The notes below the pieces were generated by a model. The model did no database searches, was not told where the DNA came from, and saw only the letters and a program-made list of their open reading frames with translations. Shown here in pieces: positions 36,062 to 40,864 of a DNA stretch of 64,000 bases. Position 1 is the first letter of the stretch. The number at the start of each line of letters is the position of its first letter. Location of the stretch: the NCBI RefSeq assembly GCF_003790525.1, contig NZ_CP033635.1; one strand, written 5' to 3'. Position numbers and translations under genes: made by a program. Origin of the DNA: Escherichia coli (lineage in GTDB: Bacteria; Pseudomonadota; Gammaproteobacteria; Enterobacterales; Enterobacteriaceae).

Positions 36062-37216
36062 TTACTTCAGACCGGCAGCATCGCGCAGCAGCTGCGCTTT
36101 GTCGGTTTTTTCCCACGGGAAATGTTCGCGACCAAAGTGACCGTATGCTGCGGTTTCTTTGTAGATCGGGTGCAGCAGATCCAGCATCTGAATCAGACCG
36201 TATGGACGCAGGTCAAAGAACTCACGTACCAGCAGAGTCAGTTGTTCAGAAGGCACTTTCTCGGTACCGAAAGTTTCCACCATGATAGAGGTCGGTTCAG
36301 CCACGCCGATTGCGTAGGAAACCTGAATTTCACAACGATCGGCCAGGCCAGCAGCAACGATGTTTTTCGCGACATAACGTGCTGCGTACGCTGCGGAACG
36401 GTCCACTTTTGATGGATCTTTACCAGAGAATGCACCACCACCGTGACGTGCCATGCCGCCGTAGGTATCAACGATAATTTTACGACCAGTCAGACCGCAG
36501 TCACCCATCGGGCCACCGATAACAAAACGACCGGTCGGGTTGATGAAGAATTTGGTGGCAGAAGTCAGCCATTCAGCCGGCAGAATCGGCTTGATGATCT
36601 CTTCCATTACCGCTTCTTGCAGCGATTTCTGGTCGATTTCTTCAGAGTGCTGAGTGGAAAGCACGACAGCATCGATACCAACGATTTTGCCGTCGTCATA
36701 CTGGAAAGTCACCTGGCTTTTCGCGTCCGGGCGCAGCCACGGCAGAGTGCCGTTTTTACGCACTTCAGCCTGACGCTGTACCAGACGGTGTGCATAGGTG
36801 ATAGGCGCTGGCATCAGCACGTCGGTTTCATTGGTTGCGTAGCCAAACATCAGACCCTGGTCACCCGCGCCCTGTTCCAGCGGATCGGCACGGTCAACGC
36901 CCTGGTTGATGTCAGGAGACTGTTTACCGATGGCGCTCAGAACCGCACAGGAGTTAGCGTCAAAGCCCATGTCGGAATGCACATAGCCAATTTCGCGAAC
37001 GGTGTTACGGGTGATCTCTTCGATGTCTACCCAGGCGCTGGTGGTGATTTCGCCGCCAACTAAAACCATGCCGGTTTTTACGTAGGTTTCGCAAGCAACG
37101 CGTGCTTTCGGATCCTGTTCGAGGATCGCGTCTAAAACGGCATCAGAGATTTGGTCAGCAATTTTGTCAGGATGCCCTTCAGAGACGGACTCGGACGTAA
37201 AAAGGTGTTTTGCCAT
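36062..37216 (-). CDS. metK: S-adenosylmethionine synthetase
   Basis: 384 aa from [22 protein letters not shown]... Confidence 0.95.
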
Positions 37217-37519
37217 ATTTAATATCACCTAAAGAGAATTTGGTTAGCTCAAACTGTTGTGTGGATTTTCTGTGGTAGCGGATCCTACCACGACTCTGCA
37301 GGTTAAAAACACTGGCAGTCTGAGTGTTAATCGGTATGGATGGATTAACATCTGGATGGCTATTTTAGGTCAGTTCTTCACCCAATTTCCACTTTTTTTT
37401 GAATCGTGTCTCATTCTGTTAAAAACGTGGCTGGAAATTTTTCCTGACAATGCTGGCATTCTGCGTATTTATCTTTTGCAATTTTCTGCCATTGTGGGGT
37501 ATAAAACGCGGCGCGCGGC

Positions 37520-37735
37520 TTAAATAAAAAGCACACGACGTTTCTTTCGTGTTGCCACTTCCAGCCGGGTTGAAAACAGAGTTTTGGCTTGTGGGTTCGT
37601 CTTAACAGGCGGCCGTGGAGGTGATACGAAATAATGAACCGTTGTCTGCTGCTTAACCTGTCTCACCGTTCTGGTGAAGATTCGTTCCCCGCACTCTGCA
37701 TCTCTGCTTTGCATACCTGCCGATGTTATACCCAT
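37520..37735 (-). CDS. Small hypothetical protein, possibly YqgC (71 aa)
   Basis: 71-aa ORF in metK-speA intergenic region where K-12 has small yqgC/yqgD ORFs; coding status doubtful. Confidence 0.3.
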
Positions 37736-37870
37736 CTCGGCGCTTCTCAGGATTCAAGAGCTGGTTACAGCTACTGAGGACTGAACAAGGGCGCTCTTGT
37801 AAAAACAAGAGTTTTCTCGTGGTTTCGCCGAACTGTCACACTTACGTTCGGTTATGTGCTTAATAATGTT

Positions 37871-38002
37871 ATGAAAAAGAAACCGGTTGCGCAGTTGGAG
37901 CGTCAGCATTCACTGCTGGAAAATCCATGTGCTTATGGGTTGTTATCGCAGTTCCAGGCTGCGATAGTCGTTAACTGTTTTACACTTAATAAAATAATTT
38001 GA
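37871..38002 (+). CDS. yqgB: Small acid-stress/leader peptide YqgB (43 aa)
   Basis: ATG at 37871; [43 protein letters not shown]; stops 8 nt before speA. Confidence 0.8.
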
Positions 38003-38010
38003 GGTTCGCT

Positions 38011-39987
38011 ATGTCTGACGACATGTCTATGGGTTTGCCTTCGTCAGCGGGCGAACACGGTGTACTACGCTCCATGCAGGAGGTTGCAATGAGCTCCCAG
38101 GAAGCCAGCAAGATGCTGCGTACTTACAATATTGCCTGGTGGGGCAATAACTACTATGACGTTAACGAGCTGGGCCACATTAGCGTGTGCCCGGACCCGG
38201 ACGTCCCGGAAGCTCGCGTCGATCTCGCGCAGTTAGTGAAAACTCGCGAAGCACAGGGTCAGCGTCTGCCTGCACTGTTCTGTTTCCCACAGATCCTGCA
38301 GCACCGTTTGCGTTCCATTAACGCCGCGTTCAAACGTGCGCGGGAATCCTACGGCTATAACGGCGATTACTTCCTTGTTTATCCGATCAAAGTTAACCAG
38401 CACCGTCGCGTGATTGAGTCCCTGATTCATTCGGGCGAACCGCTGGGCCTGGAAGCCGGTTCCAAAGCGGAGTTGATGGCGGTGTTGGCACATGCTGGCA
38501 TGACCCGTAGCGTCATCGTCTGCAACGGTTATAAGGACCGCGAATATATCCGCCTGGCATTAATTGGCGAGAAGATGGGCCACAAGGTCTATCTGGTCAT
38601 TGAGAAGATGTCAGAAATTGCCATTGTGCTGGATGAAGCAGAACGTCTGAATGTCGTTCCTCGTCTGGGCGTGCGTGCACGTCTGGCTTCGCAGGGCTCG
38701 GGTAAATGGCAGTCCTCCGGCGGGGAAAAATCGAAGTTCGGCCTGGCGGCGACTCAGGTACTGCAACTGGTTGAAACGCTGCGTGAAGCCGGGCGTCTCG
38801 ACAGCCTGCAACTGCTGCACTTCCACCTCGGTTCGCAGATGGCGAATATTCGCGATATCGCGACAGGCGTTCGTGAATCCGCGCGTTTCTATGTGGAACT
38901 GCACAAGCTGGGCGTCAATATTCAGTGCTTCGACGTCGGCGGCGGTCTGGGCGTGGACTATGAAGGCACCCGTTCGCAGTCCGACTGTTCGGTGAACTAC
39001 GGCCTCAATGAATACGCCAACAACATCATCTGGGCGATTGGTGATGCGTGTGAAGAAAATGGTCTGCCACATCCGACAGTAATCACCGAGTCGGGTCGTG
39101 CGGTGACTGCGCATCACACCGTGCTGGTGTCAAATATCATCGGCGTGGAACGTAACGAATACACGGTGCCGACTGCGCCTGCAGAAGACGCACCGCGCGC
39201 ATTGCAAAGCATGTGGGAAACCTGGCAGGAGATGCACGAACCGGGAACTCGCCGTTCTCTGCGTGAATGGTTACACGACAGCCAGATGGATCTGCACGAT
39301 ATTCATATCGGCTACTCTTCCGGCACCTTTAGCCTGCAAGAACGCGCATGGGCTGAGCAGCTTTATTTGAGCATGTGCCATGAAGTGCAAAAGCAGCTGG
39401 ATCCGCAAAACCGTGCTCATCGTCCGATTATCGACGAGCTGCAGGAACGTATGGCGGACAAAATGTACGTCAACTTCTCGCTGTTCCAGTCGATGCCGGA
39501 TGCGTGGGGGATCGACCAGTTGTTCCCGGTTCTGCCGCTGGAAGGGTTGGATCAAGTGCCGGAACGCCGCGCTGTGCTGCTGGATATTACCTGTGACTCT
39601 GACGGTGCTATTGATCACTATATTGATGGTGATGGTATTGCCACGACAATGCCAATGCCGGAGTACGATCCAGAGAATCCGCCGATGCTCGGTTTCTTCA
39701 TGGTCGGCGCATATCAGGAGATCCTCGGCAACATGCACAACCTGTTCGGTGATACCGAAGCGGTTGACGTGTTCGTCTTCCCTGACGGCAGCGTAGAAGT
39801 AGAACTGTCTGACGAAGGCGATACCGTGGCGGATATGCTGCAATATGTACAGCTCGATCCGAAAACGTTGTTAACCCAGTTCCGTGATCAAGTGAAGAAA
39901 ACCGATCTTGATGCTGAACTGCAACAACAGTTCCTTGAAGAGTTCGAGGCAGGTTTGTACGGTTATACCTATCTTGAAGATGAATAA
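38011..39987 (+). CDS. speA: Biosynthetic arginine decarboxylase
   Basis: 658 aa from [18 protein letters not shown]... Confidence 0.95.
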
Positions 39988-40132: not shown

Positions 40133-40864
40133 ATGAAAAAATGGAAAGTACGTAGCGCGTTGATAGCATTAGCCGTGCTGCTGGCCGGTTGTTCCAGTAA
40201 TGCGCAGTATAATAGCAGTGCATCAGGCAATGTCGGCACCGCCTGGGGTGGGGATGTGCACTCATCGGTTCAGGGCGTATCTGCTGAACGAGTCTGGCGC
40301 GATCCGGCAGAGATGATCGTTATTAGTTATTCGACTACTGTTCCTTCGGGCTACGACCGCGTTTATAGCATTCGTATTAACGAACTTGAATATGCTATTC
40401 GCGATGGTAATTTTAATTCTCTACCTATTACGCGGGTTTATGATTCGTCAAATAATGAACCACGCTATATTGTCCATGCCAGAGTAGGAATGAATTATCA
40501 ATTATATGTCCGCAATTACAGTCGTAATACCAACTACGAGATCGTTGCTACGGTTGATGGCCTGGATGTGCTGAACGGCAAGCAAGGTTCGCTGAATAAC
40601 AACGGCTATATTGTGAATGCCGGAGATTCGTTAGCGATTAAAGGATTCCGCAAAGATAAACATACCGAAGCGGCTTTTCAGTTCGCCAACGTTGTTGATT
40701 CCTACGCAGCCAATTCGGCGCAAGGCGATGTGCGTAATACCGGTGTAATCGGCTTTGCCGCCTTTGAATTACAAGGCCCGGCGCAAAACGCGCTGCCGCC
40801 GTGCTCTGGACAAGCCTTTCCGGCGGACAACAATGGCTATGCGCCGCCACCGTGTCGGAAATAG
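40133..40864 (+). CDS. Hypothetical lipoprotein (243 aa), not recalled in K-12 at this site
   Basis: Signal peptide with lipobox LLAGCSS; Asn/Tyr-rich; no recognised domain; own terminator downstream. Confidence 0.6.
   Translation: MKKWKVRSALIALAVLLAGCSSNAQYNSSASGNVGTAWGGDVHSSVQGVSAERVWRDPAEMIVISYSTTVPSGYDRVYSIRINELEYAIRDGNFNSLPITRVYDSSNNEPRYIVHARVGMNYQLYVRNYSRNTNYEIVATVDGLDVLNGKQGSLNNNGYIVNAGDSLAIKGFRKDKHTEAAFQFANVVDSYAANSAQGDVRNTGVIGFAAFELQGPAQNALPPCSGQAFPADNNGYAPPPCRK

Follow-up and report, generated by a model that had tools for sequence, protein, structure and literature searches.

Several kinds of short open reading frame (ORF) that act on the gene downstream of them have been described. 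The attenuation leaders trpL, hisL, and pheL are short ORFs within the leader of a biosynthetic gene, and they are defined by a run of regulatory codons and by an intrinsic terminator/antiterminator directly 3' of the ORF. In SpeFL-speF, whose peptide is an ornithine-sensing arrest peptide, and in MdtU-mdtJI, which is spermidine-dependent, a small upstream ORF (uORF) precedes a polyamine gene and Rho-dependent termination takes place downstream of it. In translationally coupled pairs, the stop codon of the upstream partner overlaps or abuts the start of the gene that follows, and this downstream start, with its Shine-Dalgarno (SD) sequence, is closed by structure.

The small gene yqgB of Escherichia coli, which lies immediately upstream of speA, can be compared with each of these. 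It shares with trpL, hisL, and pheL its small size and its place in a biosynthetic leader, but it has neither a regulatory-codon run nor an intrinsic terminator/antiterminator directly 3', and so lacks the two defining features of such leaders. Its likeness to SpeFL and MdtU is one of context only: there is no sequence similarity between these peptides and YqgB, which matches just its own family and is not known to arrest in response to a ligand, and yqgB has neither a conserved spacing between motif and stop codon nor an arrest-like signature upon overexpression. Judging from its sequence, yqgB appears to resemble translationally coupled gene pairs or uORFs most closely in how it works. In every locus, as in such pairs, the yqgB stop codon shares nucleotides with the SD (UGAGG) or the start (AUGUCUGA) of speA, and base pairing is predicted for the speA start region. 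Unlike the upstream partner of a typical coupled pair, however, yqgB is a 43-codon ORF that sits in a long leader and has no SD of its own, and the coupling itself is a prediction.

Work on Rho-dependent termination has already drawn attention to this region. Adams et al. (PMC7815308) place yqgB together with another small ORF, yqgG, in a speA leader of ~500 nt that is under Rho-dependent termination; they report a probable yqgG-yqgB-speAB transcript and list yqgB-speA, as a candidate only, among nine possible regulatory uORF/gene pairs. A passage of the same paper, citing Hemm 2008, refers to yqgB as an 'experimentally validated' small ORF. The Rho-dependent RNA 3' end that they report at K-12 position 3085854 (Rho score 3.1; PMC7815308) corresponds to position 38068 of the window, 57 nt into speA. 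(The window is the whole stretch of E. coli DNA that was analysed, 64,000 nt from contig NZ_CP033635.1; the 3' end was placed on it through the coordinates in their supplement and an alignment to K-12.) In the same work the rhoR66S mutation has no effect on fusions that contain only the 5' UTR of cyaA or of eptB. Because this loss is reported for the cyaA and eptB fusions, it is implied that the Rho effect is retained in the 5' UTR-only lacZ fusion of speA.

The window contains the following features at the junction between yqgB and speA:

37871..38002, plus strand: yqgB, 43 codons from ATG to TGA, with no SD (best duplex -2.4 kcal/mol)
38001..38004, plus strand: GAGG, the SD of the first speA start (M1), which overlaps the yqgB stop (TGAGG); duplex -6.3 kcal/mol
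38011..39987, plus strand: speA, encoding biosynthetic arginine decarboxylase, full-length (MSDDMSMGL...), annotated as 658 aa
38089, plus strand: ATG of an internal speA start (M27), with the SD AGGAGG; duplex -11.0 kcal/mol

The first-pass annotation had reported a 43-aa ORF that begins with the ATG at 37871 and stops 8 nt before the speA start, and had identified it as the known small protein YqgB. Coordinates, translation, and spacing are all correct: translation of the window gives a 43-codon ORF with an ATG start and a TGA stop at 37871-38002 (plus strand), the TGA occupies 38000-38002, and a spacer of 8 nt, GGTTCGCT, separates it from the speA ATG at 38011. The identification is right as well. 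The alignment to K-12 yqgB that had been proposed as a check was run and reveals no mismatch to the annotated YqgB (MG1655 b2939, NP_417414.2), with 43/43 residues and 132/132 nt identical; over 541 nt of aligned sequence (window 37520-38060) there are 3 substitutions, each of them in the leader 5' of yqgB. The protein matches the Pfam family PF11036 with 113.3 bits against a cut-off of 24, with residues 1-43 of 43 covered, and NCBIfam NF033844 with 90.1 bits against a cut-off of 35. A 871-nt stretch around yqgB, on which RefSeq annotates yqgD, yqgG, yqgB, and speA, is present in 5425 of the 5426 complete E. coli genomes, with an identity of at least 99% in 5396 of them. Its length of 43 codons alone would be within chance, because many ORFs of about that size are present in the ORF list of the window. 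The ORF is nevertheless taken to be real because it matches curated families, is annotated as yqgB in RefSeq, and keeps the position of its start, frame, and stop in 79 loci. Its identity as yqgB is essentially certain; by all available tests it belongs to the YqgB family, and as found here it is an already known, annotated E. coli gene. An in-frame GTG at 37856, which would give a 48-aa version, was set aside in favour of the ATG at 37871, since this ATG is invariant across genera, annotated, and a site of initiation in cell-free profiling.

The arrangement upstream of speA is also preserved, as had been claimed. The annotations of strains SK1144 and MG1655 share the gene order metK, yqgD, yqgG, yqgB, speA, and the K-12 gene has the same DNA, the same protein, the same neighbours, and the same 8-nt gap to speA. 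The two loci differ further downstream. Between speA and speB, which in K-12 are only 137 nt apart, the window has an ORF of 243 aa (40133-40864, plus strand) with a lipoprotein-like signal (MKKWKVRSALIALAVLLAGCSS...), which is absent from K-12. It is a 'hypothetical protein' in RefSeq (WP_000758911.1), present in 3558 of the 5426 complete E. coli genomes, and has no Pfam match.

The speA SD, GAGG, is invariant in all loci, and the internal start is mentioned in a passage of the INRI-seq paper, which recalls a second speA start at codon 27. Cell-free initiation profiling (INRI-seq) detects the yqgB start codon, and in vivo Ribo-RET does not; because yqgB has no SD and gives no Ribo-RET signal in vivo, its translation may be weak. 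The conservation of its open frame speaks for translation. A two-codon ORF, ATG-TTA-TGA (37866-37874, plus strand), overlaps the yqgB start codon and has no SD before it; the pattern ATG-NTA-TGA is retained in >90% of 48 aligned sequences.

The leader that precedes these signals contains the following:

37476..37505, plus strand: probable promoter of the long speA leader, read from the sequence, with a -35 element TTGCAA (37476-37481), an 18-nt spacer, and a -10 element TATAAA (37500-37505)
37513..38010, plus strand: speA 5' leader of ~498 nt, which holds yqgG and yqgB; its bounds are from the primers of Adams et al. (PMC7815308)
37634..37777, plus strand: yqgG, a 47-codon upstream ORF annotated in RefSeq, which matches Pfam PF23505 at 3e-38
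37793..37822, plus strand: terminator-like hairpin (GCTCTTG/CAAGAGT, 37793-37812) followed by a T-rich tract, found by consensus scan between yqgG and yqgB

The predicted transcript start for this promoter is near 37513, and the 'speA 5' UTR' clone of Adams et al. 2021 (PMC7815308), made with primer GCGCGGCTTAAATAAAAAGC, begins at the position equivalent to 37513 of the window. From about 37548 on, the leader is strongly conserved across genera in a nucleotide-level manner. yqgG itself has a strong SD (GGAGGTG, duplex -10.6 kcal/mol) and a near-invariant C-terminal peptide motif of 17 residues, and its length ranges from 42 to 51 codons across loci with one exception; its tagged protein has been detected in published work. 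A C-rich, G-poor stretch at 37633-37750 (C/G 1.6-1.7), within or overlapping yqgG, looks like a Rho loading (rut-like) site. In all loci but one, 84-105 nt separate the yqgG stop from the yqgB start; the yqgB-speA junction is fixed. The terminator-like hairpin between the two ORFs has a predicted energy of -14 kcal/mol (z = -2.4) and is almost invariant across genera. An Rfam scan of 37200-38200 on both strands gives zero matches at E <= 1, so the region contains no riboswitch, leader, or sRNA family that has been described. The minus strand opposite yqgG (37520-37735) contains yqgC, an ORF of 71 aa that is in the K-12 annotation and absent from the PGAP annotation of an identical strain; published data reveal no ribosome density and no tagged protein for it, and given this yqgC is probably not a gene.

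Outside E. coli, yqgB is found in a narrow group of relatives. A word-indexed protein search with YqgB returns no relatives beyond Escherichia and Shigella, and the exhaustive HMMER search that is needed to reach other genera gives only 14 representative relatives, which indicates that the family is small. A scan of one genome per species contributed 80 of 112 confirmed loci, from about 20 Enterobacteriaceae genera together with two contaminated records. One of these records (L003) is a 270-nt contig filed as Streptobacillus notomytis, whose yqgB is identical to that of E. coli; the other (L056, 3123 nt) is filed as Chryseobacterium sp. 18061 and matches the locus of Citrobacter sp. 18056 (L055). 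Contamination or mislabelling of the public assemblies is the most likely origin of both. The comparative set consists of the 79 loci that cover the yqgB-speA junction.

In all 79 loci, which represent other genera as well, yqgB lies between yqgG and speA, has its ATG, and has a frame that is never interrupted. In 64 of them the stop is the TGA within TGAGG, 8 nt before the speA ATG. In the other 15, a 1-nt change in length moves the stop to the TGA of ATGTCTGA, so that yqgB overlaps speA by 8 nt; three more loci added by protein identity (L083-L085) have this same overlap. The spacing between yqgB and speA is thus +8 or -8 nt with zero exceptions (an apparent gap of 19 nt in one locus, L066, is an artefact of the BLAST alignment, and reading the sequence gives 8 nt), and none of the loci compared has yqgB in the third frame, in which it would be fused to speA. 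This has to be read with the knowledge that an ORF entering in two of the three frames stops here automatically, because TGAGGTTCGCTATGTCTGA, which comprises the speA SD and first codons, is invariant anyway. Across codons 1-39, an in-frame stop occurs in 0 of 72 unique sequences, where column resampling leads one to expect 12% (~9); the other two frames carry stops in 72/72 and 47/72 sequences; and among the sequences compared there are no indels in these codons, despite free variation there.

Two further observations concern the length and the middle of the peptide. In five loci from four species, yqgB has an insertion of 81-144 nt, located 3' of its CFT codons and 5' of the speA SD, at these coordinates of the respective locus sequences:

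L039, 1615-1746: insertion
L082, 1615-1755: insertion
L083, 1615-1758: insertion
L084 and L085, 1615-1695: insertion

Each is predicted to form a long stable hairpin (-30 to -57 kcal/mol) and is flanked by a TAYRCACTT repeat; it may be a mobile repeat or an added regulatory domain. The uORF stays open through the insertions to the TGA that overlaps speA, giving peptides of 70-91 residues; this open frame is not significant alone, since a second frame contains hardly any stops in these G+C-rich hairpins either. In addition, two YqgB variants, one of E. coli (P0005) and one of Shigella flexneri (P0008), depart from the E. coli sequence in the middle and agree with it at both ends, as would be expected of paired compensating frameshifts; they could be sequencing errors. 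If they are real, the open frame would have been kept and the peptide not.

How the ORF varies can be compared with the gene that follows it. With E. coli as the reference, the divergence at nonsynonymous (pN) and synonymous (pS) sites is:

yqgB codons 1-39: pS 0.32, pN 0.17, pN/pS 0.54
speA codons 1-40: pS 0.19, pN 0.056, pN/pS 0.30
speA codons 41-440: pS 0.56, pN 0.036, pN/pS 0.06

Among 69 unique sequences, the yqgB blocks GGG TTG TTA TCG, GCG ATA, TGT TTT ACA, AAA CCG, CAG, and CTG show no variation at any of the three codon positions, as expected of constraint at the RNA level. Codons 9-11, 14, 17-20, 27-30, and 40-43 change freely at each of their three positions, so that more than one third of the YqgB residues are free; the peptide is under weak constraint and evolves quickly. 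Conserved peptide motifs are present (MxKKPVA, YGLLS, and AIVVNCFTL), and within the conserved blocks variation is greater at third positions than at first and second ones. Purely synonymous variation is confined to A7, H13, V33, V34, L39, and N2; because A7, H13, V33, V34, and L39 change only synonymously, part of the peptide may matter. Overall, sequences would be expected to vary in this way if the translation and the RNA sequence of the ORF mattered more than most of its amino acids. The first ~35 codons of speA are, like the whole leader, conserved in a nucleotide-level way. The strong reduction of synonymous divergence in speA codons 1-40 (38011-38130, plus strand; pS 0.19 against 0.56 in the rest of the gene) points to a possible RNA-level constraint that would span both speA starts, M1 and codon 27.

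The RNA structure was modelled as an RNAalifold consensus of 48 sequences over window positions 37860-38075, which contains the following predicted elements:

37881..37941, plus strand: RNA domain within yqgB, with helices 37881-37886/37936-37941, 37891-37894/37929-37932, and 37903-37907/37915-37919
37943..37967, plus strand: hairpin TTATCGC...GCGATAG, within yqgB codons 25-33
37976..37986, plus strand: 5' arm of a long-range helix (TGT..TACACT), yqgB codons 36-39
38059..38069, plus strand: 3' arm of the long-range helix, speA codons 17-20
38004..38056, plus strand: hairpin that encloses the speA start codon, in which 38004-38021 pairs with 38041-38056

Taken as a whole, 98.9% of the cells of the consensus structure are paired, compared with 27-52% when the partners are slid by 1-3 columns. 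Compensatory changes are seen only in the helix 37891-37894/37929-37932, where an A-U pair in 29 sequences is replaced by G-C in 15. The pair counts are neutral on the hairpin at 37943..37967, because its stem is invariant and its loop variable. In the long-range helix (37976-37986/38059-38069), all 9 pairs are invariant in the 48 sequences, synonymous sites included, and there is no covariation. Of the 16 pairs in the hairpin at the speA start, 13 are invariant and 3 have one-sided variation, mainly from U-A to the wobble U-G; 99.5% of its cells are paired in the 48 sequences, and up to 100% of those in the long-range helix. In isolation, this hairpin has no excess stability over shuffled sequence (z = -1.05). 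Because the helices at the speA start are invariant or vary by wobble only, with no covariation, they are consistent with a structure and do not prove one. Across 12 genera, the mean unpaired probability is 0.18-0.34 in the speA start region and 0.45-0.69 in the yqgB start region. The Rho-dependent 3' end at 38068 coincides with the 3' foot of the enclosing helix, and would fit with a transcript trimmed back to stable structure, as Adams et al. (PMC7815308) proposed for such ends.

The explanation that best accommodates these observations, and which seems somewhat better than an even bet, is that yqgB is a uORF translationally coupled to the first speA start, with a role mainly in cis. As read directly from the sequence, the yqgB UGA overlaps the speA SD and the speA AUG lies 8 nt on. 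In the modelled RNA, the speA start would be held in the hairpin 38004-38056, which would itself be enclosed by the helix 37976-37986/38059-38069. A ribosome on the last codons of yqgB that goes on to terminate at the UGA would melt both helices, and either this ribosome or a new 30S subunit could then initiate at the speA AUG (M1) through reinitiation or coupling. Were yqgB to remain untranslated, the speA start would stay closed and the early speA RNA would be bare, allowing Rho to terminate transcription. When yqgB is deleted in Salmonella, the levels of speA mRNA, speB mRNA, and arginine decarboxylase fall (2026 paper), which fits with an effect of yqgB in cis. The cause could instead be the loss of RNA or DNA elements with the deletion, not the loss of translation.

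Another reading is that yqgB is an incidental ORF, its conservation being due to a structured leader RNA or to DNA control sites and its translation having no role. It would account for the lack of an SD, for conserved blocks that are invariant at all codon positions with reduced synonymous divergence, and for the similar conservation of the entire leader and of speA codons 1-40; in addition, a consensus scan finds a promoter-like match, TTAACT-16-AATAAT (37971-37998), at the 3' end of yqgB. The behaviour of the frame speaks against it. The ATG is invariant, in-frame stops are found in 0/72 sequences against ~9 expected, codons 1-39 are free of indels while the other frames are closed in 72/72 and 47/72, third positions vary more than first and second ones within the conserved blocks, and initiation at the yqgB ATG is detected by INRI-seq. 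An incidental ORF is judged highly improbable. Only slightly less doubtful is the idea that yqgB is a sensing leader, either an attenuation peptide that reports arginine or an arrest peptide for a metabolite of the polyamine pathway in the manner of SpeFL and MdtU. Its setting invites the idea, since it is located in the leader of a polyamine-pathway gene with Rho-dependent termination, other polyamine genes (speF, mdtJI) use such uORFs, and AIVVNCFTL lies near the C-terminus, where the ribosome exit tunnel would hold the motif. However, arginine is encoded only once in E. coli yqgB (R11), at a site that is variable, and the ORF contains no runs of codons for Arg or other amino acids of the pathway. 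No terminator-like hairpin follows it: in the consensus scan there is no terminator/antiterminator pair within or after yqgB, up to speA, and the sole such site (37793-37812) lies 5' of yqgB. An arrest peptide would be expected to keep a fixed distance between its motif and its stop, and across the genera compared no such distance is found; from AIVVNCFTL/CFT to the stop there are about 4-5, 9-10, or ~30-50 codons depending on the genus. Moreover, in a published screen for arrest peptides, overexpressed YqgB triggers heat shock and does not give the cold-shock-like signature that arrest peptides produce. From its sequence, yqgG may be the real sensing element of the speA leader.

A stronger contender, still thought unlikely, is that YqgB is a small acid-stress protein acting in trans, its adjacency to speA reflecting operon organisation with no control in cis; such a protein could coexist with a cis role. 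The databases favour this by name (RefSeq and NCBIfam have 'acid stress response protein YqgB', Pfam 'virulence promoting factor'), the Salmonella yqgB deletion strain is more sensitive to colistin at low pH, with its authors treating YqgB as a drug-binding protein, and the peptide does have the three conserved motifs and five codons that change only synonymously. Yet these motifs do not vary even in their nucleotides and fall on predicted helices, pN/pS is 0.54 against 0.06 for speA, over a third of the residues are free at three codon positions, and the C-terminus extends 4, 9, or ~50 residues beyond the CFT motif. The Salmonella phenotype comes with lower speA/speB and is relieved by arginine, putrescine, or spermidine, and complementation is not mentioned in the 2026 paper. 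Overexpressed YqgB, for its part, induces heat-shock proteins of the aggregation type.

Returning to yqgB as a uORF coupled to speA, the label 'leader peptide' given in the first-pass annotation is plausible and is supported in part. What stands is the position in the speA leader, together with the comparative support for a cis-acting uORF of the coupling type; the classical marks of attenuation are absent, and the label, if true, would refer to coupling rather than to attenuation. A broader proposal, offered as a speculation that is more probably wrong than right, is that the 'acid stress' phenotype of yqgB mutants is a cis effect on speA, and that a coupling uORF indifferent to its peptide, yqgG, the rut-like stretch, and the structured leader of ~500 nt together constitute a two-uORF, Rho-dependent switch. 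Such a switch would in addition determine how much of the long SpeA isoform is made relative to the short one, because only M1 would be coupled to yqgB and M27 has a strong SD of its own.

A role of yqgB in cis would add modestly to a suggestion that is already in the literature. It would link translation of a uORF to speA expression within a long leader with known Rho-dependent termination, and a cis effect on speA would therefore be an effect on polyamine synthesis. This would bear on recent work in which YqgB is treated as a drug target. If the cis reading holds, the name 'acid stress response protein' may describe an effect on speA rather than an activity of the peptide.
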